Part shown: positions 20,113-41,537 of the stretch, piece by piece | How the letters are laid out: every line of letters begins with the position of its first letter | Position numbering within the stretch: position 1 is the stretch's first letter | DNA from: Phycisphaeraceae bacterium | GTDB lineage: Bacteria; Planctomycetota; Phycisphaerae; Phycisphaerales; Zrk34 | Direction of reading: 5' to 3' | DNA: 41,537 nucleotides | Assembly: GCA_041674345.1 (NCBI GenBank) | Contig: JBAYVY010000001.1 | Span: 1 to 41,537, forward strand | The notes under the pieces: generated by a model | Database searches by the model: none | What the model was told of the DNA's origin: nothing | Seen by the model: the letters and a program-made list of their open reading frames with translations, nothing else | Translations under genes and position numbers: made by a program

Positions 20113-21654
<1,542 letters not shown>

Positions 21655-21660
21655 GGTGTT

Positions 21661-21978
21661 TTAGCCCTTTTTCTTGAACATTCCGAGCATGCGGTCGGTG
21701 ACGAGATACCCGCCGACGACGTTGATCGTCGCGGCGACGATGGCGATGAAGCCGAACACGGTGGTCAGTACGGCGGATTCGGAACCGGCGGCGATCAGCG
21801 CGCCGACGATGGTGATGCCCGAAATCGCGTTCGAGCCGCTCATCAGCGGCGTGTGCAGCGTGGGCGGAACCTTGGTGATCAGATCGGCGCCGTACATCGT
21901 CGCCAGGATAAAGATCGTGAACAGCGCGATGAACGAACCACCGGACGTTTGGGCGAGAATGAGGGGGAATATGTGCAT
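21661..21978 (-). CDS. pntAB: NAD(P) transhydrogenase subunit alpha part 2
   Basis: 105-aa membrane protein. HTPLMSGSNAISGITIVGA signature. Lies directly upstream of pntB. Confidence 0.88.
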   Translation of the reverse strand: MHIFPLILAQTSGGSFIALFTIFILATMYGADLITKVPPTLHTPLMSGSNAISGITIVGALIAAGSESAVLTTVFGFIAIVAATINVVGGYLVTDRMLGMFKKKG

Positions 21979-22011
21979 CGTTGCGACCTTTCGTAATCGA
22001 AGTATGCGGAT

Positions 22012-23601: not shown

Positions 23602-26085
23602 TCATTTCCCCTCATCGCCCGTCGCCTTTCGCTTCTCGTCGTCTTCCAGCACGGCGCGGGTCGCCGCCGCGAAGGCGTTGATCGTCATGTCTCCGCTGCG
23701 AAGGCCGGCGTTCAATATCGGATCATCGACCTTATGCACCTGCGTGGCCAGCATCGTCAACTGCACCAGCGGGTGAGGGGTCTGCGCCGCGGCGGACAGC
23801 ACGTCGGCCAGTGGTTTGACCACCGTGTCATTCGGCGGGATCAGCGACACGAGGTATGCCTGTTGCACCGGCGAATAACCGGGGAACGCGGCAACCAACG
23901 CCCGCGTGATGTCGTCATCGGGGCGGGGGAAATTCATTTCCCCCGCCGGCTCGGACAGCACGGCGACGAGCATGGCCATCGCACGCATCGCCGCGGCCGG
24001 ATCGGAACTGCCCAGTTCGATGATTTTCTGTTGGACGGCCTGCTGGGTGATCGGCACATTGCGGCGGACCAGATCGCGCAGGAACGCGGTGGAGCCGAGC
24101 ATCCCCGGCGCGAACGCCCCGCCGGAGGCGACGGTCGGATTGAGGATCGCCAGTTCGCCGATCTGCACCCTGGCCCACGGCGAATCGGTCAGCAGCATGC
24201 CCAGGTCCGCGCTGTCCAATCGCACGGGGATCGACAGCGACCGCAACGGCTCGATCCGCAACCGGCGGGACACATCCATCACCATCGGCGACAACGGAGA
24301 CGCCGGCCGCAAATTCACCGACACCGACGGCGAAAGGAACAGCCGCGTCGGTATCGAACCGTCCGGCCCCATCGACAACGGATAAGTGTTGACATTGCGA
24401 AGTTCCAGCACGGCGGTGATTGGCTGACCGAAGTCGTACCGCATCATCGGACAGACCCATCGCACCTGCACGAAGCTCATCGGATCGGCGGCCATCTGTC
24501 GCAGCGCGGGGGGCACGGCGGCGAACACGGCGGCCACCTGCCGCGCCTCGGCCGGAGCGGGCAGGGGCAGGGACATGCGGCGAAGCTGCGCCGCGGCGGT
24601 CATGCCGAATATGTCCGTCGGCGATTGAAGCACGACCTGACGCAGATGTTGGATCGCCCGATCCTTCGCATCGGACTGCGCCAGTTCGGCCATCGCCAGA
24701 CCGAGCGCCGCGCGCGGATCGGCGTCCGCCAGGGGCGTGAGCAGTTGCGTGGCGATGTCGAGTTGGCCGGTGCGCATCGCCAGCCAGCCGCGCATCAGCG
24801 GCAGTTGAAGGTTCGCCGCATCGGGCTGCGTCGCCAGTTTGTCGAGCAGCGCGGCGGTCTGATCGGTGTTCTGATCGCAGAGGAGCTGCGCCCAGACCTG
24901 TGCGACGGCGGGGGCAATGAATTGCCCCCGCCCCAGTTCGGCGTTCAATCGGTCGTCCAGCCGCTTGAACGCGACGGACAGATCGGCGGAGGTTCCGTTG
25001 TTGGCCAGGATCGCCGCCCGCAGCATCAACGAGTCAAGCGGAGGCCAGTCCGGGTTCGCGGGAGGGGGTGCCTTGTCGGACTTCGCTTCCGGGGGCGGGG
25101 GCGATGAATCGCCCCCGCCTTTGGGGGCGGGGACCGGGGGCGGGTCGAGTTGTGCCAGCAGCGATATCGCATCGCTTCCGCGACCGGCCCCCCACAACGC
25201 CAGCGCCCATTCGTGCAGCAGCGAGATCGAGCCGGTGCGACGGTTGGCGGTGTCGATCCGCGCCGCGCCGGCGAACCAATCGGCGGCATCGTTGTATTGC
25301 GCCATCGACATGAGCATCTGCCCGATGGCCGCATGAGCGCGACCGTCGGCCGGGTCGGCCTGGAAGAGCGTCAACATCGCCGCGGCCCGCTCCTGGGCCG
25401 TGCTTTTTTCACTGGCGCTGAGTACCCGCAACGATTCGGCGGCCGCCTGTTTGTTCGTCGAATCCAACTGAAGCGCCATCGTCAGCAGGCGACCGTATTC
25501 GCCGGGCTGCCCCAGTTCGGCCGCGAGAATCGCCGCCCGCAGCGCCACGCGACTGCGCAGCGGAGCGCTGAAATGTTCGGCCGCCGGTCCTTCGGTGATT
25601 TTCAACAGGTACGCCAGTCGCAGATCGGCGGTCTGCATTTTTGCCGTGAGCAGGTCGATCAGCCGCAGTTGTGCCGCGTCGTCGGCCGGCGCCAGCCGCA
25701 TGTATTGTTTGAGCGCGTCGATCTGCGCGTCGCGGTCGTCGCAAAGCGACTGCGCCTCGGCGGTCAGCAGCCATCGCTCGGCGTCCGTGCCGTCCAAAGC
25801 GTTGGCCTGTTCGAGCAACAGGCGCGCCTGCGTGATGCGGGCCGGTTGGGGCTGGGCCTGGTCCGCAGACACCAGCGCCCGCCGCGCCAGCATCGTCAGC
25901 CGGTGCGCCAACATCCGCGACGCGGTGGGATACGACGCGGCGTCCGGCGGGGTTCCTGGAGCATCCGGGGTTCCGGGGGCATCCGGAGGGACGGCCTGTG
26001 CCGGCGCGATGCCCGTCGCCATCGCGATCAGCAGCAGCATTATGAACGCGGTCGATCGATTGGTTTTCACTGACAGACCCTTCAC
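23602..26085 (-). CDS. large secreted TPR-like/helical-repeat protein, function unknown
   Basis: 827 aa. GTG start at 26085 (alternative ATG at 26040) gives signal peptide ...LLLIAMATGIAPAQA. Alanine/leucine-rich helical repeats. Contains two palindrome copies in frame. Confidence 0.6.
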   Translation of the reverse strand: MKGLSVKTNRSTAFIMLLLIAMATGIAPAQAVPPDAPGTPDAPGTPPDAASYPTASRMLAHRLTMLARRALVSADQAQPQPARITQARLLLEQANALDGTDAERWLLTAEAQSLCDDRDAQIDALKQYMRLAPADDAAQLRLIDLLTAKMQTADLRLAYLLKITEGPAAEHFSAPLRSRVALRAAILAAELGQPGEYGRLLTMALQLDSTNKQAAAESLRVLSASEKSTAQERAAAMLTLFQADPADGRAHAAIGQMLMSMAQYNDAADWFAGAARIDTANRRTGSISLLHEWALALWGAGRGSDAISLLAQLDPPPVPAPKGGGDSSPPPPEAKSDKAPPPANPDWPPLDSLMLRAAILANNGTSADLSVAFKRLDDRLNAELGRGQFIAPAVAQVWAQLLCDQNTDQTAALLDKLATQPDAANLQLPLMRGWLAMRTGQLDIATQLLTPLADADPRAALGLAMAELAQSDAKDRAIQHLRQVVLQSPTDIFGMTAAAQLRRMSLPLPAPAEARQVAAVFAAVPPALRQMAADPMSFVQVRWVCPMMRYDFGQPITAVLELRNVNTYPLSMGPDGSIPTRLFLSPSVSVNLRPASPLSPMVMDVSRRLRIEPLRSLSIPVRLDSADLGMLLTDSPWARVQIGELAILNPTVASGGAFAPGMLGSTAFLRDLVRRNVPITQQAVQQKIIELGSSDPAAAMRAMAMLVAVLSEPAGEMNFPRPDDDITRALVAAFPGYSPVQQAYLVSLIPPNDTVVKPLADVLSAAAQTPHPLVQLTMLATQVHKVDDPILNAGLRSGDMTINAFAAATRAVLEDDEKRKATGDEGK
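24907..24932. repeat. 26-nt palindrome, copy C (GGCGGGGGCAATGAATTGCCCCCGCC)
   Basis: One central substitution relative to copy B. In frame in the TPR-like gene as GRGQFIAPA. Confidence 0.9.
25094..25119. repeat. 26-nt palindrome, copy D (GGCGGGGGCGATGAATCGCCCCCGCC)
   Basis: Same GC clamps, with centre CGATGAATCG. In frame in the TPR-like gene as KGGGDSSPPP. Confidence 0.8.
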
Positions 26086-29507: not shown

Positions 29508-30506
29508 TTACGGCTGCGCGGGGGCGGGAACCGCCAGCGTCCGGCCCGACACGCTGGTCTCGAACGCCAGGCGAAACGACTCGGCCGCGTGTTCCCAATC
29601 CTTGTCGTGCTGATACACCAGCCCCAGCGCGTAATGCACCTCAGCCGGTTCGGGGTTCAGCGCCAGCGCTTCGCTCAATAACTGTTTCGCGTCGCCCCAC
29701 TGACTCAACGCGACCATCGCCCGGCCCTTCAATGCATTGACGCGCCAACCCGCCACTGTTTTTTCGTCCACGTTTCGCAGTGTTTTCATCGCTTCCGCCG
29801 GCCGGCCGACGGCGATGTCCAGCCGCGCCATCGCCAACAGCAGCAATGCGGATCGGGGTTCTTTCTCCAGCCCCTTGGTGATCTCGGTACGGGCTTCGCC
29901 GTAATCGCCTTTCTCCATCAATCGCTGCGCCAGTTGGAGGTGGCGATTGGCGATGTCGCCGTCGGTGCTGCCGACGACGCCGCGGTCGGCCAGTCGTTGT
30001 CTGAGCGTCGCCTCGTCGATTTTGCCGGATGCGAAGTCGATGTAAGCCGCCATGTCTTTGCTGTACGACGCGGGACATCCGCCGATGTGCGCGATGAGTT
30101 TGCCGTCACCGGCGATCACCAGCGTGGTCGGCCAGACGCGCACAAGCATCCGACCCGACGCGTCGTATTTCGGATCGACGACCATCGGCAGCGTCCACCG
30201 GGTCTGTTCAACCAGCGTCGGTGCGAACGCCCCCGCCTGTTCGCCGCTGATGATCGCGGCGATCCGCGCATCGCTCCGACCGGCCAGTACCTGTTGCGCG
30301 TAACCCATCGCGTGTTTGCTGTGGTCCTGGTCGGCCATGACGAACAACAGCACCGTGACGCGACCGGCGAGGGGCACGGCGAACGGTTGGCCGGTGGTAT
30401 CCTGCGCGGCCCAGGTGATCGTTTTCGGCGCAAGTTCCTGCGCGATGAGCGAGCATGTCAGGCCGAGCGTCAGCAGCATGGATGCGAGAAATGTACGGCA
30501 AATCAT
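29508..30506 (-). CDS. periplasmic thioredoxin-fold (no CXXC) + TPR protein
   Basis: Signal peptide. TlpA/redoxin-like fold with VLLFVMADQDHSK where WCxxC is expected. C-terminal TPR repeats (GDYGEARTEITKGLEKEP..., ALGLVYQHDKDWEHAAESF). The start overlaps the upstream stop (ATGA). Confidence 0.7.
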   Translation of the reverse strand: MICRTFLASMLLTLGLTCSLIAQELAPKTITWAAQDTTGQPFAVPLAGRVTVLLFVMADQDHSKHAMGYAQQVLAGRSDARIAAIISGEQAGAFAPTLVEQTRWTLPMVVDPKYDASGRMLVRVWPTTLVIAGDGKLIAHIGGCPASYSKDMAAYIDFASGKIDEATLRQRLADRGVVGSTDGDIANRHLQLAQRLMEKGDYGEARTEITKGLEKEPRSALLLLAMARLDIAVGRPAEAMKTLRNVDEKTVAGWRVNALKGRAMVALSQWGDAKQLLSEALALNPEPAEVHYALGLVYQHDKDWEHAAESFRLAFETSVSGRTLAVPAPAQP

Positions 30507-32002
30507 GGCTTGGGTACCTCCGTGGAAGAAGGAGCGGGCGCTGGGGCGGCAGCCGCATCTGGTTTCGTTTCGCGGGCCGGGGCTGATTCCGGGGGCGGGG
30601 GGGCGTTGTAATCAACGGGGTGATCGCGGTCGTAATTCAGCGGCTTGTGGCAGCCGGGCGAGCAGCTTCCGCCGGTCTTGACGGGCGTGTAGCTGATCGG
30701 CAGCGTCCAATTGCCGTAAGGCACCGATTCGCGGATGTGCATCGACTGCGTGCTGGCGTGGGTACTGTGACAAGCGCGGCAGGTTCGGCCCCGTGATTCC
30801 TTCTCAACATGCACATAATGAAGGTTCCGCGAGCCGTTGCGGAAACCGGTGAGTGAACGGGTGTCTTTTTGCGTCGCCAGGTCTTTGCTGTGACAGGTGA
30901 AGCACAGGCCGTAGTCATCGACCTTGAACGATGCGTAGAACTGTTCGGGGTAGGGCTTGGCCAGCAGGCGTGACACGTCCGAGCCGTGGACGTTGTGACA
31001 TCCGCCGCAACCGCCTTCTTTCAACGGGCCGTGCAGGTACATGCCCGGCTGGGTGATCTCCGCCGCCGAATGCACGACTTTGCCGCCGGACTGCGTGATG
31101 TCCTTGTCGTGGCACTTCATGCAAATGGTGATCGGCTGATCTTTCAGCAGTTTCGACAGGTTGCCGCCGTGCGCCGTGTGACAGTTGACGCAGGCCCGCC
31201 CCTCGGTCACGGCCGAGTGCTTGTATTTCGCATCGAACGCGGCTTTGCCGATGTCCTTGTGGCAACGGGTGCAAAGCTGAAGCGGTGCCGCCTTCAACAC
31301 CGGCGCGTTGTCGCCGGCGTGCGGATCGTGGCATTGGATGCAGTCGCCGTCCGTCACCGGCTTGTGCGCGAATTGAACATGCTTGAGCTGGTCGCCCATT
31401 TCCGTGTGGCAGGTGAGACACAACTGGTTCGCGGGTTTGACCAGCAGGTGATCGTTGGCCGACAGATGCGGCTGGTGGCACGCGCCGCATGCGCCGGCGG
31501 CCACCGGACCGTGTATCGACTTGTGATCTTTGGTCATGTCCTGGTGGCACGTCTTGCAAAGATCGCCCATCGACTTGGCGCGAAGCAGATTCCGGTCGAA
31601 CCCGCCGTGCGGGTCGTGGCAACTCTGACACTGCCCGGCGGCCAGCGGCTTATGCACGACCTTCGCCCCGGAGGTATCCATCTGATGACAGAACGCGCAA
31701 AGTTTGTCGGGGCTGCGCAACAGCGTGAACTTGTGCGTCTTGGCGTCGGTGAGCGTGTGGCAGGCGTCGCAGGCGTTGACGTTCACCGGGCCGTGTACCT
31801 GCGGATGTTTTTTCACACCCGCGTGGCAATCGGCGGTGACGCAGTCCTTCATGGCCACCACGGTGGTCGGTTTTGTCACGGCGGATGCGATGGGAACTGC
31901 GGGAACCGCGGGTCGGGCGGCGGGCGCGGCATCGCCGGCGAACGCCGGCGATCCGATCGCCGCGAGCATCGCAATGGACAGCAACATCACATATCGTTTC
32001 AT
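30503..32002 (-). CDS. periplasmic multiheme cytochrome c (13 CXXCH + CX4CH + CX3CH)
   Basis: Signal peptide MKRYVMLLSIAMLAAIGSPAFA. Paired CXXCH ... H-x-P ... CXXCH-x-PH spacing, as in Geobacter-type doubled-CXXCH cytochromes. Paralog of the upstream gene. Confidence 0.9.
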   Translation of the reverse strand: MKRYVMLLSIAMLAAIGSPAFAGDAAPAARPAVPAVPIASAVTKPTTVVAMKDCVTADCHAGVKKHPQVHGPVNVNACDACHTLTDAKTHKFTLLRSPDKLCAFCHQMDTSGAKVVHKPLAAGQCQSCHDPHGGFDRNLLRAKSMGDLCKTCHQDMTKDHKSIHGPVAAGACGACHQPHLSANDHLLVKPANQLCLTCHTEMGDQLKHVQFAHKPVTDGDCIQCHDPHAGDNAPVLKAAPLQLCTRCHKDIGKAAFDAKYKHSAVTEGRACVNCHTAHGGNLSKLLKDQPITICMKCHDKDITQSGGKVVHSAAEITQPGMYLHGPLKEGGCGGCHNVHGSDVSRLLAKPYPEQFYASFKVDDYGLCFTCHSKDLATQKDTRSLTGFRNGSRNLHYVHVEKESRGRTCRACHSTHASTQSMHIRESVPYGNWTLPISYTPVKTGGSCSPGCHKPLNYDRDHPVDYNAPPPPESAPARETKPDAAAAPAPAPSSTEVPKP

Positions 32003-33510
32003 GGTGTACCCGCTTTCGGCACAGGGTTCAAATCGCGCTTGTACGTTTTGGGTTCATGGCAGCCGGGCGAGCAACTGCCGCCGCCGGATGCTTTTTGGAA
32101 CTTGATCGGCATGGCCCACTGGCCGCCCTCGAACGGCACGCTGGTGGCGATGTGGTTCGGCAGATCGCTGCCATGAATGTCGTGACAGGTCTTGCAGGTT
32201 CGGCCTTTCTCCGCCCGATGCACATGCACGTAATGAAGGTTCGCGTCCCCGTTGCGGAAGCCCGTGAGATTGACGGTTTTTTCTTCAAGCACCAAATCTT
32301 TGTTGTGACAGGTGAAGCAGAGCGCGTAATTTTGAAGATCGAATTTCGCGTAAAAAGTTTTGGGGAAGGTTTGGACGAGCAATCGTTCGTGGCCGGCGCC
32401 GTGGACGTTGTGGCAGGCGGTGCAGTCGCCGGACCGCACCGGGCCGTGAAGGAACTTTTGATTCAGCGTGGGGCGCATGTCGGGAATGGTGTGGCCGTCG
32501 TGCGCCGGCAGCGGTTTGTCGTGGCAGGTCATGCAGAGTTTGTCGGCCCGCTGCTTCAGCAGGTGCGGCTGAGGCGAGGCGTGGGCGTCGTGACAGTTGG
32601 CGCAACCATCGGCGATCACCAGCGCATCGTGCGAAACAGTCGCGTTTTCAACGGTCTTCGCCATGTCCTCGTGACACGACAGACAGGTGGCGTCGATGGG
32701 CTTGCGAAGTTCATATGGATTGTCGGAAGTGTGCGGATCGTGACAAGTGGTGCATTGATCTTTGGCCGGGGCGTGGACGAAGGGTGAATCGGCGATGGCC
32801 CGTTGTTTGTCGGCATGGCAGCCGAAGCAGACCTTGGGTTCATCGCCGCCGCGCAACAGTTTGTTGAAATTGGATTCGTGGGGCTGATGGCAGAGCGTGC
32901 ATTGCCCGGCTTTGAACGGCTGGTGGGCGTGTTTCCGCCAGGGGATGTCGTGGCACTTGGCGCAGAGTTGTTCGGTGTTGTCAGCGGTGAGCAGGAACTT
33001 GGCGCGCGAGGCGTGGGGATTGTGACAGGTGGTGCAGCCGTTGTCGGCGACGGCTTTGTGCTGGTGCGCGGCGGTGTCGGTGACGGTGTGACAATACGTG
33101 CAGGTGGCATCTTTTTCGCGTTTGAGCGGATAAGTGTGTCCGCCCTGGTCTTCTTTGTGACAGGCGAAGCAATTTTTCAGCGCGACCGGGCCGTGGATGC
33201 GCGAGGCGGTTGCGAAGGAAGCGTGACAGGCGGGAGTGACGCAGGAAGCGTCGGCGGGCAGGGGGCCGGTGGGCTTGGGGTCGGGCGCGACGGGGACGGG
33301 CGCGATCGGGCCGGACCCGCCCCCGGAAGTGAAGCGGGTCACGCCGGGAGAAGTGAGCGGAAAACTTTCGGTGGACGCGGCGGGCGCGGCGCCCCTGGTC
33401 GGCTCGACGGGCTTGGGTTTGCGACCGCAAGCGATCAGCGCGACGCACAGGCACAACAGCAGCGACGGCGCGATGAAACGGAGCGCGGGATGTGCGGGGC
33501 GCGGGGTCAT
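31999..33510 (-). CDS. multiheme cytochrome c lipoprotein (13 CXXCH + CX4CH + CX3CH)
   Basis: Track ORF 31999..34107 trimmed to the ATG at 33510. That start overlaps the upstream stop (ATGA) and gives lipoprotein signal LLLCLCVALIAC. The longer N-terminus is an R-rich shadow. Confidence 0.88.
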   Translation of the reverse strand: MTPRPAHPALRFIAPSLLLCLCVALIACGRKPKPVEPTRGAAPAASTESFPLTSPGVTRFTSGGGSGPIAPVPVAPDPKPTGPLPADASCVTPACHASFATASRIHGPVALKNCFACHKEDQGGHTYPLKREKDATCTYCHTVTDTAAHQHKAVADNGCTTCHNPHASRAKFLLTADNTEQLCAKCHDIPWRKHAHQPFKAGQCTLCHQPHESNFNKLLRGGDEPKVCFGCHADKQRAIADSPFVHAPAKDQCTTCHDPHTSDNPYELRKPIDATCLSCHEDMAKTVENATVSHDALVIADGCANCHDAHASPQPHLLKQRADKLCMTCHDKPLPAHDGHTIPDMRPTLNQKFLHGPVRSGDCTACHNVHGAGHERLLVQTFPKTFYAKFDLQNYALCFTCHNKDLVLEEKTVNLTGFRNGDANLHYVHVHRAEKGRTCKTCHDIHGSDLPNHIATSVPFEGGQWAMPIKFQKASGGGSCSPGCHEPKTYKRDLNPVPKAGTP

Positions 33511-35018
33511 GGGGTGGTTTGCGTGACGATCTTTTCGCAGTTGTCGATGGCGACGTGCAGCAGGGCGGTGGCGTAGGTCATGTTGTGAACGCCGCGACCG
33601 ATGCGGACCAGTTCGATGTTGTGCCGGGCGTCGTCGAACAGTTGTCGCAGTTGCAGTTGTTTGGGCGCGGGCAGGGCGTCGATGTGCTTGAGCGACTCGG
33701 CGGCCCGTTTCGCGGCGGCCTGCGCGTCGGCGAGGTCTTTGTCGATGGCGACTTTCCACTCGGCGAGTTTGTCGTTGTATTGTTCGCCGTGGCACTTGGT
33801 ACACGCGGCCTGCGCGGCGCGGAAGGTCTGGCCGGACACCAGCGCGATGTCGCCGGCGTGTTCGGGGAAATCGTGACAGGCGATGCAATCGACCTGCGTG
33901 CGGAACATGACGCTGGGCGAATCGCTCACGCCGCGCCCGCCGGTGCCGCGATACAGATCGAGCGAACCGCTGTGCAGTTGTTCGTGGCATTGGGCGCAGG
34001 AGCCGGCCTGCATGACGACCTGGTTGGCGTTGCCGATGACGCGCTCGGCTCCGGCGGGCGCGCCGGCGGTCAAGCTGTGCGTGATCTGAATGTGGCAACT
34101 GGAACATTCGACCTTGTGTTCGTTGACGTGGGCTTGGTGCATGAAGCTAGTTTCGCTGTACCGGGCGATCTGGACCGGCTGATTGTGACAGGTCCAGCAG
34201 CCCTGCCTGGGGACCGCGCCGTCACCGCTGATCGCGTCGGAGTGGCAGTTCTGGCACGTCACGCCGCGGTTGATGAAATCGGCGTGGTTGAACAACCCGG
34301 TGCTCAGACGAATCTTCTCTTTGGGCGCATCGTGGCACGCGCGGCAGCCGCCGAGCGTCTGATCGTCGCGTCCGTGCTTGAAGCCCTTGAAGTGGCAGAG
34401 GAAGCAGGTGTCGAGCGTGACGACGATGTGCTGGCCCTGCACGATTTGCGAGTGGCATGAGACGCAGCGGAGTTGTTTGCCGCGGCGGTCCTGTGTGAGG
34501 TGGGGCGTGTGATCGAAGCGGATGGTGATGGTGTCGCCTCGTGAACTTTTGACATCCCAGTTGACCTTGCCTTCGAGCAGGCGGCGTTCGTGGCAGCCGT
34601 CACGCATGCAGGCGGCGTCATGGACCTCGGCGTGGGGCTTGGAGCCGTAGGTGTGGGTGATGTATTTGACGGCCTGACTGGAGGCCTGGAACTTTCCGTA
34701 GAGGGTGTTGCCGACGCCGGGGTCGAAGTGACATTTGACGCAGGGCACGTCTTTGTGGTTGGAGGTGTGCCAGGCCTGGTAGTAGGGTTCCATGATGTGG
34801 CAGGAACGGCAGAAGTCGGGCTGCATGGAATACTCGGCGAAGCCGATGGAGCCGATGACGCCGAACACCGCGCCGAACAGCACCATGCCCCACAACGTCA
34901 GGCCCAGAGGGATGCGTTTGCCGTGCCTGCGGCGGATGCCGAGTACGCGCTGCCACTTGGGGCGTTGTGACGCCGCGGGGGGCGGGGATGCGGTCGGTTG
35001 ATTTTCCTGCGGCTCCAT
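33507..35018 (-). CDS. membrane-anchored NapC/NirT/NrfH-type multiheme cytochrome c (11 CXXCH + CX4CH)
   Basis: N-terminal TM helix LTLWGMVLFGAVFGVIGSIGF, followed by CRSCHIMEPYYQAWHTSNHKDVPCVKCH, the NapC/NirT signature. Further hemes and a C-terminal helical region. Confidence 0.85.
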   Translation of the reverse strand: MEPQENQPTASPPPAASQRPKWQRVLGIRRRHGKRIPLGLTLWGMVLFGAVFGVIGSIGFAEYSMQPDFCRSCHIMEPYYQAWHTSNHKDVPCVKCHFDPGVGNTLYGKFQASSQAVKYITHTYGSKPHAEVHDAACMRDGCHERRLLEGKVNWDVKSSRGDTITIRFDHTPHLTQDRRGKQLRCVSCHSQIVQGQHIVVTLDTCFLCHFKGFKHGRDDQTLGGCRACHDAPKEKIRLSTGLFNHADFINRGVTCQNCHSDAISGDGAVPRQGCWTCHNQPVQIARYSETSFMHQAHVNEHKVECSSCHIQITHSLTAGAPAGAERVIGNANQVVMQAGSCAQCHEQLHSGSLDLYRGTGGRGVSDSPSVMFRTQVDCIACHDFPEHAGDIALVSGQTFRAAQAACTKCHGEQYNDKLAEWKVAIDKDLADAQAAAKRAAESLKHIDALPAPKQLQLRQLFDDARHNIELVRIGRGVHNMTYATALLHVAIDNCEKIVTQTTP

Positions 35019-35027: not shown

Positions 35028-37202
35028 CTAAATCGCCTCCAGTCCGGCGAGGATGATGAGGACGGCCATCGCGGTTCCGACGAGCATGGCGAGGATGCCC
35101 AGCGCGACGGCGACGTAACGGTACCATCGCGGCGGGAGGGGAACGCGGTATTTTTCGATTTCGCCGGATGCGACCAATCGTTCGTATTCTTCGGGGCGTT
35201 CGTGTTTGAACTCTTCTTCCGAAAGCTGGCCGGTGAACATGACGTCATCGACGGGGAACTTTTCGGGTCGGACGTGCGCGTTGAAGAAATGGATGGTGAA
35301 GATGAAGACGACGGCGAGCAGGGCCTCGTAGCCGTGAATCAACGTGGCGATGTTGAAGGTCCAGCCGGGCAGGATGTGGGCGGTGGTGGTGGGGAACCAG
35401 AGCATCAGGCCGGTGATGCCGATGACGAAGGTGCCGAAGATTTCAGCCCAGTAGTCGAACTTTTCCCAGTAGGTCCAGTGATCGAAGCGGGGCGGGTTTT
35501 TGCCGGTGAAGAACCAGCGGAACATGGCCAGACAGTCTTTGGCGTCCTTGGGTTTGGGGACCAGGGAGTTGGGGCCGGTGAGGAACCTGAACAGCGAGAC
35601 GTGGCGTTGCCTGGCGCGGTGGACGACGCCGGCGATGTGTACGGCGAAGTTGCCGATGAGTATGACGGCGCAGATGCGGTGGATGATGCCGGCGGAGTGG
35701 ACCCCGCCGAGCATGTCGGCCAGCACGATGGCCCACTGGTGATCGCTGAACAGCAGGGGCATGCCGGTGAGGGTCAGTCCGAAGAAGCTGACGATCATCA
35801 GGCCGTGGTTGACGCGATCGACGCGGTTGAAGCGTTTGATGCCGTGGGTTTTGTGCGAGTGTTTGGGTTTGCCGTTTTTCAGGCGTTCGATGTGGGCGCG
35901 GATGAACCAGAGGATGGTGTGGACGCCGAAGAAGCTGAACGTGGAGCTTATCACGATGATGAAATAGAGCCAGACGTAATGGAGGAGCGGGAAGTTTTTG
36001 GCGCTGTGGAAATCGGCGTGGGGGCGGAACTCGGTGAACATGGCGGTCGCGCCTTCGTGACATTTGGCGCAGGTGTCGATGCGATGGTCGGGGGCGAGGC
36101 GCGAGTCGGGATCGTTCGGCGGGAGGATGTCGTGCGAGCCGTGGCAATCGCTGCAACGGGCGGCGCGCATGAAGCCGAGCTTGTTGACCTGGCCGTGGTA
36201 GCTGCCGCGATAGGTTTTGTAGAGCGAAGCGCCGTCGGGGTCGTTTTTCAGGGGTTTGTCGTGGCACTTGCCGCATTCGTTCACGATGTCGAGCATGAAC
36301 AGCGGCGTGTCGGCGGAACTGATGCGATGCGCGGTGTGACAGTCGATGCAGACCGGGGCGTTGGGATCGCCCTGGGCCAGTCGCTGACCGTGAACGGACT
36401 TTTCGTAGATTTCGTTGACGCCGACGTGACACCGGCCGCAGGTGTCGGGGACATGGGCGCGGTTGACCGAGGAGTTTTCATTTTTCGCCGGTTCGATGTC
36501 ATGCGGGCGATGGCAGTCGGCACAGGTGGCGGCGACGACCAGCCCGTTTCGCACCGCCTTGCCGTGGACGCTTTCCAGATAATTGGACACGGTTTGCCGC
36601 GGGTTCAGACCGGCGGGCGTCGGCGCGGTGAACTTCGAGTGGCATTCGGCGCAGGTCTTGATGATGTTCAGCGGATAAACCTTCGACCGGCGATCGGCGG
36701 GAGGCAGGATGTCGTGCCCGCCGTGGCACGAGGCGCAGGTCGGCGCCAGCGGGTTGTGATCGGCGACGGCTTGCGCGTGGGTGCTTCGGCGATACGCGGC
36801 GGCCTCGGCGGTGTGACACCCGCTGGTCGTGCAATCGACCCGGCTCATCTTCTGCGGATGCGGAAGATTTTCCGCGGCGGTGTGGCAACTGACACACGCC
36901 AGCGCCGCGTGCGGCCCCTGCCGAAGCGCGCCGGGCGCGATATACAAATCCGGCCTCGCCCCCGGAAGTTCACCCGCCATGTCCGTCTTACTTCCGGGGG
37001 CGGGGGCTGGGGTGGGGGCGGCTTGAATCATCGACCGACGCTCGGCGGGGGTCAGGTCGGCGATGTGCGACTGGCCGTGACAGGCGAAGCATCGCCGGTT
37101 GGACAGTTCGGCCTTGTCGAGTTCGATCGCATGAGTGATCGGCGTGAGGCACGCAAACGCCAGCACACCGGCAAACCACATCAACCGTAGGGAGTCGGGC
37201 AT
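35028..37202 (-). CDS. fusion of periplasmic multiheme cytochrome c (10 CXXCH + CX4CH) with an integral-membrane b-type cytochrome domain (CbcL-like)
   Basis: Signal peptide and heme motifs in residues ~1-390. Then 5-6 TM helices with conserved His (RVNHGLMIV, IIHRICAVILIGNFAVHIAG, TLIHGYEALLAVVFIFTIHFFNAH), as in HydC/FdnI-type dihaem cytochrome b. Confidence 0.85.
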   Translation of the reverse strand: MPDSLRLMWFAGVLAFACLTPITHAIELDKAELSNRRCFACHGQSHIADLTPAERRSMIQAAPTPAPAPGSKTDMAGELPGARPDLYIAPGALRQGPHAALACVSCHTAAENLPHPQKMSRVDCTTSGCHTAEAAAYRRSTHAQAVADHNPLAPTCASCHGGHDILPPADRRSKVYPLNIIKTCAECHSKFTAPTPAGLNPRQTVSNYLESVHGKAVRNGLVVAATCADCHRPHDIEPAKNENSSVNRAHVPDTCGRCHVGVNEIYEKSVHGQRLAQGDPNAPVCIDCHTAHRISSADTPLFMLDIVNECGKCHDKPLKNDPDGASLYKTYRGSYHGQVNKLGFMRAARCSDCHGSHDILPPNDPDSRLAPDHRIDTCAKCHEGATAMFTEFRPHADFHSAKNFPLLHYVWLYFIIVISSTFSFFGVHTILWFIRAHIERLKNGKPKHSHKTHGIKRFNRVDRVNHGLMIVSFFGLTLTGMPLLFSDHQWAIVLADMLGGVHSAGIIHRICAVILIGNFAVHIAGVVHRARQRHVSLFRFLTGPNSLVPKPKDAKDCLAMFRWFFTGKNPPRFDHWTYWEKFDYWAEIFGTFVIGITGLMLWFPTTTAHILPGWTFNIATLIHGYEALLAVVFIFTIHFFNAHVRPEKFPVDDVMFTGQLSEEEFKHERPEEYERLVASGEIEKYRVPLPPRWYRYVAVALGILAMLVGTAMAVLIILAGLEAI
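36957..37002. repeat. 13-bp inverted repeat inside the CbcL-like CDS
   Basis: CGCCCCCGGAAGT (36957-36969) and ACTTCCGGGGGCG (36990-37002) with a 20-nt spacer. Encodes a low-complexity segment PAPGSKTDMAGELPGA. Confidence 0.85.
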
Positions 37203-37464
37203 GGGGGCGTATCACCGCGTCAAAAAAATCGCTGCGGCGCCTTGGTACGGGGGTGGGGGTGGGGCGCGGGCCGGCGGCGTGGAAGGTTCCCTGATCGGCC
37301 CTGTTCCCACGTCGGCTTGCCATGCGATAAGCATATCCCGTGCCTGACAATGGGCTGTCAGTAAAGGAGTTAGAATGAGATGTCAATGGGTTTTTCTTGC
37401 GAATGGGAAAATGTGCTTATGGGGCTTCCCGTAAGCAAGAGGGAGGGGGGAAGGGAGGGAAGGG

Positions 37465-37595
37465 GAAACTCGAAATCCGAAACTCGAAGCTCGAATCAAA
37501 CTCGAAGTCCGAAACTCGAAACAAGAGGCGGCCTTCTTTTTCGATTTTCGAGTTTCGGACTTGATTCGAGCTTCGATCTTCGAGCTTCGAGTTTC
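37465..37595. repeat. oligomer-built hairpin element (CTCGAAA/CTCGAAG type), about 50-bp stem
   Basis: GAAACTCGAAATCCGAAACTCGAAGCTCGAATCAAACTCGAAGTCCGAAACTCGAAA ... TTTCGAGTTTCGGACTTGATTCGAGCTTCGATCTTCGAGCTTCGAGTTTC. Lies between the kinase stop and the cytochrome operon. Confidence 0.85.
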
Positions 37596-37625
37596 GTCAT
37601 TCGCCGCATACAGATCGTAGGCGAC

Positions 37626-38984
37626 TCACGGCACCGAAGGTTTCGCCGAGATCGTCAGATGATTCACCGCCGTCGCCGCCGTCGGCTTGGGCAGAACAAT
37701 CGTCATCGTCGTGCCCCGACCGGGCGCGCTGTCCACCTCAATCCGCCCGCCCTGCTTGTTCACCAGCGAATAGCTGATCGCCAGTCCCAGCCCCGTGCCC
37801 TTGCCCACCGGTTTGGTGGTGAAAAACGGCTCGAAAATGTGGTCTTTGTGTTCCGGCGGGATGCCCGTGCCGTTGTCCGTGATGCTGATGTGGCACTCGT
37901 TGCCCACGCATCGCGTTCGCACGATCAGCTTGGGGTTGGTCGCGCTGCCCACCGCGTCGATCGCATTGAGCAACAGGTTAATCAACACCTGCTGCATCGC
38001 GTGCGGCTGAATGTGCAACAGACACGGCGTCGGACTGAAGTCCCGCTCGATCAGCACCGCGCGGTGTCGCCGGTCGAATCGCACCATCGCCAGTCCCGTT
38101 TCCACCAGATCAATGATCGGCATCATCTCCCAGTGCATGTCGGTCGGATGCGAGAAGTTGGTGAGCTGGCTGAGTATCTGCCGGATGCGGGCGGCCTGTT
38201 GACGCAGCGTCGTCAGTTTCTCGCCGGTCATGCGGTCGGGGTGGCGCTCGGCCAGTTGCAACATGCTGTCGATGTTGGCCAGGGGATTGGCGATTTCATG
38301 CGCCACGCCCGCCGCCATCTGTCCCATCGCCACCATCTTCTCATGTTGAATCATCGTCTGTTGCTGCAATCGCAGGGTCTTGGCCATCGCGCGGACGCGG
38401 TGGTTCTGCGACAACAGCCGCGTGCGATGCCGGCGCAAGCTGCGCATGATGCTGTTGGCCAGATAGACCGTCAGCGCCAGCGTCAGTATCCACCCGGCCA
38501 TCACCAGACGCGGATACATCTCGACGCCTTCGGTCGGCGGTATTTGTCCGCTGAACCATAGGCAGGCCGTGACCATGATGACGGAGACCGCCGCCCCGGC
38601 GTAGGCCGTGTGACGGGGCAATAGCAGACTGGCGAACACCATATGAAAGACGAAAAACCCCATCAGCGGACTGGTCACGCCGCCGGTCCACATCGTCAGC
38701 AGCGACAACGCGCCCAGGTCCAGAACGATCTGCCCCCACGACAGCACTGTTCCCCGTCGCCGACCGAACACCGCGTGGCCCAGCAGCGAGCGAAACATCA
38801 GGTTGTAAATCAGAATCGCCAGTCCGACGAACAATATGTCCTGGTTCTTCGGGTACCAGTGCATGATCCAGCGATCGGCCAGCGCCCCGGCGATCACCGT
38901 CAACCCCGCCAGCCAGCGCAGACGAACAAACCAGCGCAATCGCACCAGCAACATCCGATCCTGGACCTGATCCGACCGAATCAT
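37626..38984 (-). CDS. polytopic sensor histidine kinase (RegB/PrrB-like architecture)
   Basis: Track ORF trimmed to the ATG at 38984, which overlaps the upstream stop (ATGA). About 6 TM helices with short loops, H-box [10 protein letters not shown]-box LLNAIDA, G-boxes DNGTGIP and GTGLGLAIS. Confidence 0.85.
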
Positions 38985-40081
38985 GTCTGCCGATTCTCCG
39001 GGATTCTCGCCAAAGTTTCCACCCCCGTCCCCGGAAGGGTTTCCTCCTGTGTTTCGGGCAGGGGTTCCAAACTCGACTGTTCCAAATCCAGCATCTTCAC
39101 TCCGCCCACATAATCGGTCAGCACGATCCGTCTCACATTCTTCAATGTCTGCACCACCCGGGTCATTCGGCCAAGCGTTTGGTGAATCTGCGTCAGACAC
39201 GTTTCCATCGCCTGCTTGTCGCCGACCTGCCTGCGAAGCAAACGCAACTGCAAGTCGATCACCGCCGCCGCGTTGTTCAGTTCGTGGTTCAGCGTCAGCG
39301 CCACCTGCTGTAACGTCTCGATCTTGCGCTGTTCGTTCTGTTCCAGTTGTGACGCCAGGTGATTGTAGGCCTGCGCCAGTTCGTCGAACTCATCGCGCTG
39401 GCTCAGGTCCACGCGGTAGTGGAAATGTTCCATCGCCAGTTCTCGCGTGGCCTCCAGCAGTTTGTCCATCGGCCGGAGGATGATGTTCGCCGACCGCAGC
39501 AGCACCAGTATCGAAATGTTGATGACCAGCAGGAAACCCGCCGCGATCGCCACGACGAGCACGCGGAATCGTCCGGTCAGTTCCGCCATTTCGTCCTGTC
39601 CGTGCTGATGCGCGAATTGCGCGACCCGCAACATGTCGTCGCGCAGCTGCGCCGCGTCGGTCAGCGCCGCCAGGTTGTGCCGGGCCGCCAGTTCCGGGTC
39701 TTCCGTGGTCGCCAGCGTGCCGACCTGCCGCTCGAACTGGTTCAGCCGGTCGCACATGCGCGAATAGACCGGCGCCATCGGTTCGCGGTGAACCACGTAA
39801 TACCCGCCCAGTTCGCGGTTCAGTTGCCGCATCCGTTGCACCGAGTCGATCAGCGGATCGAGATGGTGCGTCTTGCGGTCTCGCAGTTCATGCAGCGAAA
39901 TCTCGACGCGCGAAATCATCGAACTCAACTGGTTCGCCAGATCGACGACCTTGTTCGTCTGCGTGTTGATGTGGTTCAGCCCGCCGAATATCGACTGGAG
40001 CGACACCAGCGCCGCCACCGCCAGTATCATCAGCAGCACGATCACGCTCGACAGAATGATGAGCAGTTTTCGACGAAGCAT
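38981..40081 (-). CDS. membrane sensor with periplasmic helical domain, HAMP and DHp (HisKA-like) domain but no ATPase domain
   Basis: Start set to the ATG at 40081 (MLRRKLLIILSSVIVLLMILAVA), 2 nt after the upstream stop. Second TM, HAMP (ILRPMDKLLEATRELA...DEFDELAQAYNHLASQLE), H-box-like LNHELNNAAAVI. No N/G boxes. Confidence 0.75.
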   Translation of the reverse strand: MLRRKLLIILSSVIVLLMILAVAALVSLQSIFGGLNHINTQTNKVVDLANQLSSMISRVEISLHELRDRKTHHLDPLIDSVQRMRQLNRELGGYYVVHREPMAPVYSRMCDRLNQFERQVGTLATTEDPELAARHNLAALTDAAQLRDDMLRVAQFAHQHGQDEMAELTGRFRVLVVAIAAGFLLVINISILVLLRSANIILRPMDKLLEATRELAMEHFHYRVDLSQRDEFDELAQAYNHLASQLEQNEQRKIETLQQVALTLNHELNNAAAVIDLQLRLLRRQVGDKQAMETCLTQIHQTLGRMTRVVQTLKNVRRIVLTDYVGGVKMLDLEQSSLEPLPETQEETLPGTGVETLARIPENRQT

Positions 40082-40083
40082 GT

Positions 40084-41046
40084 TCAGTTCCCCGGTGTCA
40101 GCGGTTTGGGTGGCGGCCCCGCCACCCCCAGTTGATCCCACGCCGATCCGATCTCGTCCACCATCCGGTACACCGCCTGGTAATCCTCGATCCGGCAGGG
40201 CGCGAAACCCTTCGATCCGAACGCCTTCAACGCCGCCCGGCCCCGCTCGTCCTGATCCATCTTCAGCAGCGTTTCCCGCAGCGCCCGCATCTGATCGGCC
40301 GGCATGTCGCCGCTGACGATCAGCCCGTTGTCCGGCACCTGGTCGCTGGTCGCCAATCGACGAATCCGCACCTCCGGGTGTTCCGTCAGGTACGCATCCA
40401 GCCGCAGGTTTTTCACCGCCCCGGCATCGACGGTTCCCGCGATCACTTCGTTAATCACATCGTCGTGTGTGCCGACCCATCTGAAAATCGGTCGCTTCAC
40501 ATCGGTCAGCATGTCGTTCCGGTGAAACAGGTAAATCGGAAACAGGTTGCCCGCCGTGGTCGTCCGCACCAGCGCGATCGATCGGCCGGCCAGTCCCGCG
40601 ATATCGCTGATCGGCGAATCATCGCGCACGATGATGACCCCGGCGTAGGTCGATACGCCGTCCGGATGCGCCGGCTTGGCCAACACCACCGTGCCCAGCC
40701 GCTCATATGCCAGCACCGCGAGCATCGACCCGACGAACGCGCCTTCGATGTGCTTCTGCGCGAACTCGTCCAGCACGCTCTGGTAGGTGTTCAAACTGAC
40801 CAGTTCGACGGGGCGATTCAGATGCTCCGCCAGGTCGTCCGCCAGCGACTGGTAACGCTGGCGTTGCGCGAAAATGTTGCGTTCGGGGATCAGCGCCAGT
40901 CGCAGCGGGGTGGCGTTCGTCGCCGGGCCGGTTTGGACCGGCGGCGGCCCTTGCCCGTCCGTACCCGACTTGTACGCGGCACAGATGAACATGCCGACCA
41001 CCACCAGCACCAGCATCGCCGACAGAATGATCGCCGTCATACGCAT
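40084..41046 (-). CDS. membrane-anchored PhnD-like (phosphonate/phosphate ABC-type) periplasmic binding-domain protein
   Basis: N-terminal TM anchor. LRLALIPERN..., TYAGVIIVRDDSPI, AGAVKNLRLD resemble PhnD-type substrate-binding proteins. No ABC permease or ATPase gene nearby. Confidence 0.75.
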   Translation of the reverse strand: MRMTAIILSAMLVLVVVGMFICAAYKSGTDGQGPPPVQTGPATNATPLRLALIPERNIFAQRQRYQSLADDLAEHLNRPVELVSLNTYQSVLDEFAQKHIEGAFVGSMLAVLAYERLGTVVLAKPAHPDGVSTYAGVIIVRDDSPISDIAGLAGRSIALVRTTTAGNLFPIYLFHRNDMLTDVKRPIFRWVGTHDDVINEVIAGTVDAGAVKNLRLDAYLTEHPEVRIRRLATSDQVPDNGLIVSGDMPADQMRALRETLLKMDQDERGRAALKAFGSKGFAPCRIEDYQAVYRMVDEIGSAWDQLGVAGPPPKPLTPGN

Positions 41047-41294
41047 CGCGGTTTTCCCAGCAGAATCACGTCACCAAACCGGATAACATGATTCAGCATA
41101 CAAACCGCGGGCCGAAAGATATACCCGCACTTCGACGATGACCGCCGCGATTCGGTTATCACTCGTAAGAAAAAAACGCCCTCCGCATTGCCGCTTGCGG
41201 CTTAACACCCGCAAAACCCCTCTAAACGCCTCAAAAACCCCCTGTTCTCCTTTTGGCACGCCGATTGATAGAATCCATCCGGGAGCCACACGCC

Positions 41295-41537
41295 ATGAAC
41301 CACCCGCACACGATCAACGCCACGAACCCCGCCCCCCCAACGCCGCCGCTGCGACTGCTGTTCTGGGAGACCACCGCCGCGTGCAATCTCGCCTGCGTCC
41401 ACTGCCGCCGGCTCGATGTCTCGGCCAAACTCTGCAAAGACGATCTGACCACCGAACAGGCGTTGACCATGATTCGCTCCCTGCCGCAAACAGGCCGGCC
41501 CATCCTTGTCTTCTCCGGCGGCGAACCGCTCATGCGA
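41295..41537 (+). CDS. radical SAM protein, 5' partial (AhbD/NirJ-like N-terminus)
   Basis: ATG at 41295, open to the window end. LLFWETTAACNLACVHCRR is a CxxxCxxC radical-SAM cluster motif, followed by ILVFSGGEPL. Confidence 0.75.
   Translation, partial: MNHPHTINATNPAPPTPPLRLLFWETTAACNLACVHCRRLDVSAKLCKDDLTTEQALTMIRSLPQTGRPILVFSGGEPLMR

Follow-up and report, generated by a model that had tools for sequence, protein, structure and literature searches.

The AioXSR system is the precedent for a PhnD-like sensor working with a kinase and an RpoN-dependent regulator, and the oxyanion pocket of its sensor AioX is built from Tyr88, Tyr131, Ser161/Ser163 and His192 (PMC5908839). In the kinase RegB, the motif GGXXNPF lies in the loop that joins transmembrane (TM) helix 3 to helix 4 (TM3-TM4), the redox-active Cys265 lies between the H-box and the ATPase domain, and residues N110, F112, R31 and Q38 are conserved in RegB homologues without exception, the substitution N110Q nearly abolishing ubiquinone binding (PMC3000548). 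Within the HisKA motif the acidic residue next to the histidine is needed for kinase chemistry and the Asn or Thr at His+4 for phosphatase chemistry, and the DHp of EnvZ or NtrB alone is enough for phosphatase activity (PMC3510030). HisKA proteins that have no ATPase domain and keep the phosphatase motif make up ~1.7% of kinases in a database count (PMC3591291). The ChrS pseudokinase is laboratory-evolved (PMC9491836), and DHp-DHp contacts have been documented for RetS-GacS and ChrS-HrrS (PMC8498467, PMC9491836). Here we analyse a 41,537-nucleotide (nt) stretch of DNA from a Phycisphaeraceae bacterium (assembly GCA_041674345.1, contig JBAYVY010000001.1, positions 1 to 41,537; hereafter the window), in which three adjoining genes encode a PhnD-like binding protein (g1), a HAMP-DHp protein that has no ATPase domain (g2) and a complete six-TM kinase (g3), next to a multiheme cytochrome operon. 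At the level of the system, it is highly probable that the three genes are a sensing module acting with a regulator on the cytochrome operon; that their products make up the sensing half of a sigma-54-dependent system of four proteins controlling that operon, with the g2-g3 mechanism proposed below included, we judge to be evenly balanced.

The three open reading frames (ORFs) lie head to tail on the minus strand, where the sequence-only reading of this DNA had placed them. The genes and the motifs discussed below are as follows (lengths in amino acids, aa).

41046..40084, minus strand: g1, 320 aa, with its TGA stop codon at 40086..40084
40081..38981, minus strand: g2, 366 aa
39272..39292, minus strand: H-box of g2, LNHELNN, residues 264-270
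39071..39133, minus strand: C-terminal tail of g2, RRIVLTDYVGGVKMLDLEQS, residues 317-337, ~20 residues
38984..37626, minus strand: g3, 452 aa
38664..38684, minus strand: loop GGVTSPL of g3, residues 101-107, between TM3 and TM4 in the AlphaFold2 model and the positional equivalent of RegB GGXXNPF

At the first junction the TGA of g1 is followed by AC and then by the ATG of g2 at 40081, leaving a gap of 2 nt (...GGG AAC TGA AC ATG CTT...), while at the second the TGA of g2 and the ATG of g3 have three bases in common as ATGA at 38984..38981 (...CAG ACA TGA TTC...). The tight packing described earlier, a 2-nt gap and an ATGA overlap, is thus present at both junctions.

The g2 protein consists of TM1, a periplasmic four-helix bundle, TM2, a HAMP domain, a HisKA-type DHp hairpin and a conserved tail. 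Pfam finds HAMP only (PF00672, E 1e-11, 45.2 bits against a cut-off of 25, residues 198-248, directly after TM2), the HAMP aligns with that of NarQ in a PDB profile search, and NCBIfam kinase models such as BaeS align with g2 through the DHp. The AlphaFold2 model (mean predicted local distance difference test, pLDDT, of 84) contains TM1, a periplasmic helical bundle of ~145 aa, TM2, HAMP and DHp helices at 231-284 and 289-323, followed by ~45 residues that take up no fold in the monomer, and its first-ranked Foldseek match is the sensor-TM-HAMP fragment of NarQ. The g2 family profile matches the DHp of the solved kinases LvrB, CckA and ThkA, and hhalign superimposes g2 residues 251-316 on the DHp of g3 (214-277) with a probability of 94.7% and 28% identity. 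No ATPase domain was found in g2 by Pfam, NCBIfam, PDB profile search, AlphaFold2 or Foldseek. The sequence-only reading had described a ~150-aa periplasmic helical domain, HAMP and a DHp that ends with no ATPase, and this picture stands; a cryptic HATPase was specifically sought with Pfam, NCBIfam, PDB profiles and AlphaFold2, and none was detected. The element that it called H-box-like, LNHELNN, fits the HisKA motif H-E/D-x-x-T/N (PMC3510030), with H266, E267, N269 and N270 invariant in 61 homologues; among 74 genome-derived members the histidine is kept in 74/74, E/D267 in 73/74 and N/T270 in 74/74. The g2 of the window itself falls under the Pfam HisKA threshold, and many of its homologues carry a precomputed PF00512 match.

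The same architecture extends through the family. A search of 5.8 billion proteins returned 453 matches at E <= 1e-5, and the best 120 of these 453 are 326-373 aa long and contain HAMP, with or without HisKA, and never HATPase. An exhaustive profile search gave 150 representatives at 50% identity (E <= 1e-30), all of 330-390 aa or fragments, fusions excepted. The missing ATPase of g2 is, judged from these sequences, a trait of the family, and a truncated gene or pseudogene is excluded because the whole family has the same length. In the NCBI records these proteins are named merely 'HAMP domain-containing protein'.

The best-conserved stretch of g2 is its tail, with a mean pairwise identity of 0.69-0.72 as against 0.52-0.60 for the HAMP and DHp and 0.20-0.34 for the periplasmic domain. 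The tail is disordered in the AlphaFold2 monomer and found no match, the hhalign comparison with g3 and the profile matches to solved kinases all ending at residue ~316. The segment KMLDL within it looked like a remnant of an ATPase domain's first strand, a reading that the profile alignments left unsupported.

Two features tie g2 to g3. The 4-nt overlap recurs at 34 of the 63 g2-g3 junctions in related loci, and in 'bacterium AH-315-I18' (GCA_017113845.1; L091 1189-3669) the two genes are naturally fused to encode a single protein of 826 aa (P0244; also P0392, and L010 1411-3914), in which ~55 residues link the g2 tail to the N-terminus of g3. Among genomes, the host of the fusion has the g2 nearest to that of the window (65% identity), and an ENA contig gives the same sequence at 833 aa. 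The metagenome-assembled genome NORP295 contains the same fusion with the same downstream frame, broken by an extra frameshift, and the gene context of the fusion, from the PhnD-like gene to the cytochromes, is identical in three assemblies. The fusion is topologically consistent, because the C-terminus of g2 and the N-terminus of g3 are both cytoplasmic. Given the conserved overlap and the natural fusion, g2 and g3 probably function together.

The third gene encodes a complete kinase. Pfam assigns HisKA and HATPase_c (97 bits) to g3, and 6TM_PilS (PF25323) is narrowly missed, with 26.0 bits for a cut-off of 27; among the g3 orthologues listed, about half carry a precomputed PF25323 match. Its best NCBIfam matches are AtoS and ZraS, whose partners are NtrC-type. 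In the AlphaFold2 model (mean pLDDT 85) six TM helices joined by short loops run directly into the DHp helix bearing H229, which is followed by a normal ATPase domain, so that the earlier description of a complete kinase with about six TM helices and minimal loops agrees with both the domain matches and the model. Invariant in 54 sequences are H229, N336/N340, D370-x-G-x-G, FEPFFTTK and GTGLGL, corresponding to the H-box and the N, G1, F and G2 boxes, and the H-box itself is NtrB-type (HEIANPL). Seven loci (L049, L050, L067, L073, L075, L079 and L085) have g3 orthologues with an extra ~110 residues, PAS-like at the end, inserted between the six-TM domain and the DHp.

The sequence-only reading had also noted a likeness of g3 to RegB, which holds in one respect and not in another. 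Against the ActS/PrrB/RegB model NF033792, g3 residues 12-433 align to positions 6-419 of 423, with 135.6 bits against a cut-off of 350, and against the RegB equivalog the score is 85 versus 570. Sinorhizobium meliloti ActS, annotated as a member of the ActS/PrrB/RegB family, can be aligned over its whole length with the profile of the g3 family (E 1e-38); its LVRLRWLA aligns with the N-terminal segment of g3, and its GGLANPF stands opposite g3 GGVTSPL. The motif GG..SPL is kept across the g3 family, with the serine invariant and the leucine predominant. We regard the likeness as real homology, because GGVTSPL aligns with GGxxNPF and the alignment with ActS extends over the full length. At individual positions, the TM1 arginine (RegB R31) is kept and RLRW is invariant, whereas at the quinone-site positions N110 is replaced by Ser, F112 by Leu and Q38 by Val or Ala, and at the position of Cys265 g3 has Ile, which is also the family consensus (ActS SERCRDIL aligns with g3 AARIRQIL). 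Because only the arginine of these RegB residues is kept, with N110, F112, Q38 and Cys265 replaced, g3 falls outside the RegB family by that family's own criteria, and the loss of the Asn, Phe, Gln and Cys makes quinone sensing by g3 doubtful. The six-helix domain may sense something in the membrane.

The first gene encodes a binding protein of the Phosphonate-bd family (PF12974, E 4e-50, 170.9 bits against a cut-off of 27) that stays under the cut-offs of the transporter equivalogs (TIGR03431, PhnD, 112.6 versus 261.1 bits; TIGR01098, 109.6 versus 112.05). Its nearest solved structure is the phosphite binder PtxB (5o2j, E 4e-17), followed at greater distance by the sensor proteins ArrX (6x6b) and AioX (6esk). 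The pocket motifs NTY, STY, TTTAG and WVGTHD are kept in 42 orthologues and correspond tentatively, by way of the PtxB alignment, to the positions of the AioX oxyanion pocket. By position, the arsenite-binding Cys106 of AioX corresponds to a Gly in g1, within an ..AFVG.. motif as in PhnD and PtxB (PMC5908839), so the ligand of g1 would differ from that of AioX. The 42 orthologues share an N-terminal hydrophobic segment of ~20 residues followed by a variable linker, which in the window is a Pro/Gly-rich tether, and no conserved lipobox or AXA site was found across them. The N-terminal anchor proposed earlier is borne out as far as this conserved segment and linker reach, and makes a membrane tether likely. 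The neighbours of g1, here and in relatives, are g2 and an AhbD-like gene, with no adjoining ATP-binding cassette (ABC) permease or ATPase gene, and where g1 adjoins g2 in relatives the gap is mostly -4 to +20 nt. The view of g1 as a sensor-type protein that has no transporter partner has gained support, g1 directly preceding g2 in 41 of 72 loci and having AioX and ArrX among its solved relatives, and its context resembles that of AioX-type sensors in the synteny of those 41 loci, in the NtrC-type regulator nearby and in the sigma-54 promoter with its dyad.

The trio is conserved as a unit across the Phycisphaerae, to which it appears to be restricted, and is linked there to cytochrome, heme-synthesis and cytochrome-maturation genes. 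The synteny set comprised 80 loci with g2 relatives from a species-representative genome collection, annotated by profiles built from the window and three relatives, and nearly all of them are labelled Phycisphaerae or Planctomycetota. The 72 loci mentioned above are those with enough upstream DNA; in 22 loci an NtrC-type regulator stands immediately before g2 in place of g1, and these have no g1. In most loci g3 follows g2, and every g3 partner has the LRW..LRW six-TM N-terminus, a few with a PAS domain inserted. Among the 51 loci with more than 8 kilobases (kb) either side of g2, 44 contain an ORF with at least four CxxCH motifs, which agrees with the proposed tie between the trio and the cytochrome operon, and 35 encode an NtrC-type regulator (REC / AAA+ / HTH_8) within 10 kb.

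One locus of the set, L027 (JBLNDH010000387.1), is labelled 'Bacillota bacterium MAG104' and contains a complete Phycisphaerae-type locus (AhbAB, AhbC, regulator, AhbD, YgbA, g1, g2, g3); the label is probably a binning or classification error.

In relatives an NtrC-type activator adjoins the module, often surrounded by genes of alternative heme synthesis. The regulators of strain ZRK34, Fontivita pretiosa and a marine-sediment genome are REC / Sigma54_activat / HTH_8 proteins that score best as AtoC and NtrC, with the receiver Asp and the GAFTGA loop present. In ZRK34 (L003 3100-8407) the regulator gene is flanked by an AhbC/NirJ1-like radical SAM gene and by a fused AhbA/AhbB siroheme decarboxylase (above its cut-offs). 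The module is set among genes of alternative, siroheme-dependent heme synthesis, the AhbD-like gene diverging from g1. The window is part of a 45.9-kb metagenome contig, of which a further 4.4 kb were searched beyond the 41.5-kb window (L001 shows 4.8 kb upstream of g1). Neither tblastn searches with CheY and three orthologous regulators as queries nor Pfam scans of the main ORFs detected a receiver domain in the window or the remaining 4.4 kb, and Pfam has no match for the incomplete gene with which the contig ends (L001 3-644). The absence of a receiver-domain gene from the window, as first noted, is therefore correct, and the regulator would lie off the contig. The further suggestion that the system has no response regulator is not supported: its absence here is put down to the contig end and not to a property of the system, since relatives encode an NtrC-type sigma-54 activator nearby and the operon of the window has the matching sigma-54 promoter and dyad.

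This promoter, the dyads and the cytochrome operon lie downstream of g3, and the AhbD-like gene lies on the other side of the trio.

37330..37345, minus strand: sigma-54-type promoter AGGCACGGGATATGCT (-24 GG, -12 GC), in the spacer that separates g3 from the first cytochrome gene, whose start codon lies ~130-140 nt downstream
37394..37409, minus strand: upstream activator dyad TTCCCATTCGCAAGAA, exactly 64 nt before the promoter, consensus TTCYCR-N4-YGRGAA
37426..37441, minus strand: second activator site CTCTTGCTTACGGGAA, weak (2 mismatches to the dyad) and 96 nt before the promoter, read by eye
37465..37595, minus strand: near-perfect hairpin of ~130 nt with TCGAA-rich units, directly after the g3 stop, between the sensor genes and the cytochrome operon
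35028..37202, minus strand: CbcL-type protein, a periplasmic multiheme c domain fused to a membrane cytochrome b of the quinol dehydrogenase type (Pfam Cytochrom_c3_2, Cytochrome_C7, Ni_hydr_CYTB)
33507..35018, minus strand: membrane-anchored multiheme cytochrome of the NapC/NirT/NrfH family (Pfam Cytochrom_NNT, MtrC/MtrF domain II/IV)
31999..33510, minus strand: periplasmic multiheme cytochrome with paired CXXCH, DmsE/MtrA-like (Pfam Paired_CXXCH_1, E 1e-65; DmsE-family match sub-threshold)
30503..32002, minus strand: second paired-CXXCH multiheme cytochrome (Pfam Paired_CXXCH_1, E 3e-63)
29508..30506, minus strand: TPR protein closing the cytochrome operon (Pfam TPR families), in the same position in relatives
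41295..41537, plus strand: 5' part of a radical SAM/SPASM gene that is AhbD-like (heme b synthase type), diverging from g1 and continuing past the window end (full gene L001 3347-4579)

A sigma-54 promoter with a phased dyad stands ahead of the cytochrome genes. In the same spacer of relatives a sigma-54 promoter match of at least 9/12 is present in 27 of 32 loci, with the consensus TGGCACG-N4-(A/G)TGC(A/T). In the window the loose pattern GGCAC-N6-TGC has two occurrences where 2.7 are expected; since this count is at chance level, the case for the promoter rests on its position and its conservation in relatives. The dyad TTCYCR-N4-YGRGAA was found by enumerating dyads upstream of the related sigma-54 promoters, where 24 of 26 promoter regions contain it with no more than one mismatch (0.04 expected). 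Its distance from the promoter is quantised, at 64-66 nt (38 cases) or 95-98 nt (24 cases), and often both sites are present in tandem, ~three helical turns apart. Such composites of dyad and promoter precede genes for CbcL-type, NapC-type and paired-CXXCH cytochromes and, in the clade that has no g1, also the regulator-g2-g3 operon; in front of g1 neither a sigma-54 promoter nor a dyad was seen in the PhnD-linked clade. Exact copies of the dyad lie upstream of heme synthesis genes in ZRK34 (L003 2905, 8434) and Fontivita (L006 8405). The predicted promoter and dyads have the classic layout of an enhancer-binding-protein regulon. Scans of 37100-41537 for sigma-70 and terminator consensus sequences gave nothing above chance. 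A palindrome, TGACAgcccatTGTCA (window 37346-37363, minus strand), abuts the -24 element of the promoter and is not seen there in strain ZRK34. The hairpin folds as RNA with -80.5 kcal/mol (z = -7.6), and its arms have no other copies in the window; it may be a terminator, an insulator between constitutive sensor genes and a regulated operon, or a repeat element.

These observations are consistent with the following mechanism for the four-protein system. By analogy to AioX with AioS, membrane-tethered g1 would bind a small oxyanion in the periplasm and dock on the four-helix bundle of g2, which would relay the signal via TM2 and the HAMP to its own DHp helix. The g2 and g3 proteins would form one complex in which the ATPase of g3 is the sole source of phosphoryl groups and its six-helix domain supplies a membrane-borne input. 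The g2 DHp, which still has the His and Glu used in accepting phosphate and the Asn at His+4 used in phosphatase action, would be a second, ligand-gated face that phosphorylates or dephosphorylates the regulator, and the conserved tail would be the likeliest docking element. Once phosphorylated, the NtrC-type regulator encoded off the contig would bind the dyad and activate sigma-54 transcription of the cytochromes, and in relatives probably also of heme-related genes and of its own operon. That the g3 ATPase serves g2 in this way is a tentative part of the proposal, somewhat short of an even chance. Its most explicit form, an obligate asymmetric g2-g3 kinase with one ATPase (that of g3) and two DHp modules, in which the g2 tail recruits the ATPase to the g2 His and ligand and membrane signals combine on one enzyme to set the phosphorylation of the sigma-54 activator, is speculative, and we consider it rather unlikely.

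Several points weigh against this mechanism. The 4-nt overlap is seen at 54% of junctions where a rough chance estimate gives ~25%, and is thus partly expected by chance, and the g2-g3 fusion counts as one evolutionary event, though seen in three assemblies. Another candidate for a fusion, P0279, was discounted, being on a 1.75x long-read contig where the reading frame breaks downstream and an indel artefact is possible. The physical contact of g2 with g3 is something we infer. In ~9 related loci the regulator and g2 are present with no adjoining g3, so that g2 can be encoded apart from g3, and, since the regulator is not on this contig, its link to this trio rests on synteny in relatives.

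The loci with no adjoining g3 bear on the main rival, in which kinase and phosphatase are separate, non-complexed proteins: a g3 homodimer would be the only kinase and a g2 homodimer a phosphatase gated by g1 and its ligand, its His never phosphorylated. It would explain why g2 still adjoins the regulator in those loci and why the Asn at His+4 is invariant, it requires no more than the DHp of EnvZ or NtrB can do alone (PMC3510030), and ATPase-less HisKA proteins with HE/DxxN/T have been predicted as a recurrent class (PMC3591291). Yet the acidic residue beside the His, which serves kinase and not phosphatase chemistry (PMC3510030), is kept in 73/74 members, the overlap and the natural fusion suggest 1:1 co-assembly, and a separate phosphatase has no role for the highly conserved tail; we consider this rival unlikely, though to be taken seriously. 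The same invariance of His, Glu/Asp and Asn, across sequences ~35-65% identical whose other DHp positions drift, would be unexpected if the g2 chemistry were unused, as it would be were g2 a non-catalytic pseudokinase with an idle His, acting allosterically on g3 through TM, HAMP or DHp in the manner of DivL-CckA or the evolved ChrS-HrrS. PilS-type six-TM kinases sense partner proteins within the membrane, which would suit such a role. Bacterial precedents need neither a His of their own nor an ATPase (discussion in PMC9491836; DivL, PMC4211667), and we rate the pseudokinase as improbable. Conserved H-box chemistry likewise argues against g2 as a membrane-bound anti-activator that binds the sigma-54 activator directly through DHp and tail, in the manner of NifL and NifA and with no phosphoryl chemistry. 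The persistence of the g2-regulator gene pair without g3 in some loci, and a tail that is a strong candidate for a protein-binding motif, would fit an anti-activator, but the regulator's receiver is of standard form and retains the phospho-acceptor Asp, its GAFTGA loop is likewise present, and g2 has no ATP/ADP-binding GHKL (ATPase) domain such as NifL keeps, which makes this reading very improbable.

The remaining rivals concern the inputs. In the model of the sequence-only reading, the membrane domain of g3 is a RegB-type quinone sensor and the complex combines the redox state of the quinone pool with a periplasmic ligand. The full-length homology of g3 to RegB and ActS, the position of GG..SPL in the TM3-TM4 loop where RegB has GGXXNPF, the retained TM1 arginine and the quinol-dehydrogenase type of the regulated cytochromes all agree with it. 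The replacement of N110, F112 and Q38, important for ubiquinone binding in RegB, and of Cys265 by Ile (PMC3000548), the RegB-family score of 135.6 against a cut-off of 350 and the NtrC-type partner with its AAA+ domain in place of a RegA-type regulator do not, and quinone sensing by g3 is accordingly doubtful. For g1, the PF12974 and TIGR01098-type similarity and the closeness of PtxB would suit a role as binding protein in an ABC importer of phosphonate or phosphite whose other genes lie elsewhere, the place of g1 beside g2 and g3 then being incidental. That reading is extremely improbable, given that no permease or ATPase gene adjoins g1 here or in the 41 loci with g1 directly before g2, that g1-g2 gaps are mostly -4 to +20 nt, that g1 scores below the transporter equivalog cut-offs and that it probably has a membrane tether, not a cleavable signal peptide.

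The surroundings of the trio vary among relatives. The AhbD-like gene scores 439.7 bits with TIGR04545 (cut-off 500) and matches Pfam Radical_SAM and SPASM, its first 243 nt lying in the window; upstream of it, synteny on this contig is interrupted by SnoaL and PEP-CTERM genes before the contig end. In most g1-linked relatives a small YgbA_NO gene (PF11756) lies between the AhbD-like gene and g1 (L003 8470-8865, L006 8440-8829 and many others), and it is missing on the contig of the window. In the ~9 loci with no adjoining g3 (L062, L064, L065, L068, L072, L076, L077, L084 and L088, at about 11.0-14.5 kb in each), the regulator and g2 are followed by ResB and CcsA (cytochrome c maturation) or by a unit of FeS, NrfD and multiheme proteins, and L062 and L064 encode a PAS-kinase-receiver hybrid further downstream. 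The CbcL-type protein of the window also has weak NCBIfam matches to formate dehydrogenase gamma. Elsewhere in the window, two large ORFs at 23602-26085 (minus strand) and 20032-21996 (plus strand), of 827 and 654 aa, have no Pfam match, and the rest of 1-29.5 kb is housekeeping-like (TyrRS, RmuC, a NuoG-like protein, alanine dehydrogenase, UvrC and a PilZ-domain ORF). The sequencing runs holding the window sequence are DNA metagenomes only, with a landfill metagenome as the best match, and a g3 variant 93% identical to that of the window (P0121, Logan assembly) occurs in another public run, so that a closely related strain has been sampled elsewhere.

Searches of the literature turned up no account of a naturally occurring HAMP-DHp sensor that has no ATPase and is coupled to a complete six-TM kinase, nor of this Phycisphaerae cytochrome regulon. 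Almost none of the ATPase-less HisKA proteins has a known partner or role, while the g2 family comes with partner kinase, regulator, promoter and operator, and two cultured hosts, Fontivita pretiosa and strain ZRK34, make the question directly testable. The proposed regulon logic is class-wide, covering multiheme cytochromes, alternative heme synthesis and cytochrome c maturation in the Phycisphaerae, which are abundant in sediment, groundwater and landfill and whose electron-transfer physiology is poorly known; if the asymmetric g2-g3 kinase were true, it would govern all three across the class. In any genome of the group the regulon can be predicted by looking for TTCYCR-N4-YGRGAA spaced 64 or 96 nt from a sigma-54 promoter.

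We regard the module as a variant of three-component, AioXSR-like or multi-component two-component signalling, in which g2 would act as proposed above. With AioXSR, ArxXSR and ArrXSR it shares a periplasmic protein of PhnD/PtxB fold that presumably senses the ligand on behalf of a kinase-type membrane protein having its own periplasmic domain, and a regulator at an RpoN (sigma-54) promoter ahead of a respiratory enzyme operon (PMC5908839). Here, however, the HAMP protein in the position of AioS has no ATPase and is followed by a second, complete six-TM kinase, the binding protein has Gly at the position of AioX Cys106, and the target is a multiheme cytochrome operon, not a molybdoenzyme; g1 would thus extend the AioX-type use of PhnD-fold proteins as respiratory sensors to a different ligand. 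The g2 protein resembles NarX and NarQ in its periplasmic four-helix bundle, TM and HAMP, fragments of NarQ being its best fold and sequence matches, whereas its DHp is HisKA-type and not HisKA_3, it has no ATPase, and in the PhnD-linked clade its ligand probably arrives via a separate binding protein.

On the kinase side, g3 shares with RegB, PrrB and ActS six TM helices joined by very short loops, an N-terminal helix that contains ..LRW.. and the conserved Arg, GG..(S/N)P(L/F) in the TM3-TM4 loop and a HisKA-HATPase core, and differs in lacking N110, F112, Q38 and Cys265, in the NtrC-type, AAA+-containing partner where RegB has a RegA-type one, and in having an ATPase-less companion protein. 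The six-TM input domain, NtrB-type H-box and NtrC-family partner are shared with PilS-PilR, from which the locus differs in a Pfam match just below threshold, in having no pilin genes, in its cytochrome output and in two additional sensor proteins. As in CheA3/CheA4, which is a split kinase, and in the predicted class of 'HisKA without HATPase' proteins (Amin et al. 2013, PMC3591291), a phospho-acceptor/phosphatase module and an ATPase are found on separate polypeptides, and g2, a HisKA-type DHp with no HATPase and with HE/DxxN/T present, corresponds to that class; unlike the ATPase-only fragment of the split pair, g3 is a full kinase with its own DHp and His, so there would be two DHp modules per ATPase rather than a simple split. 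Finally, DivL-CckA, ChrS_CA-fs with HrrS and RetS-GacS likewise pair a kinase-like protein unable to autophosphorylate with a true kinase on or with which it acts. In DivL and ChrS_CA-fs the protein's own His is dispensable, whereas g2 keeps its whole H-box invariant, and, in contrast to DivL, ChrS_CA-fs and RetS, g2 belongs to a natural, ancient and class-wide family that is translationally coupled to its kinase and has once been fused to it.

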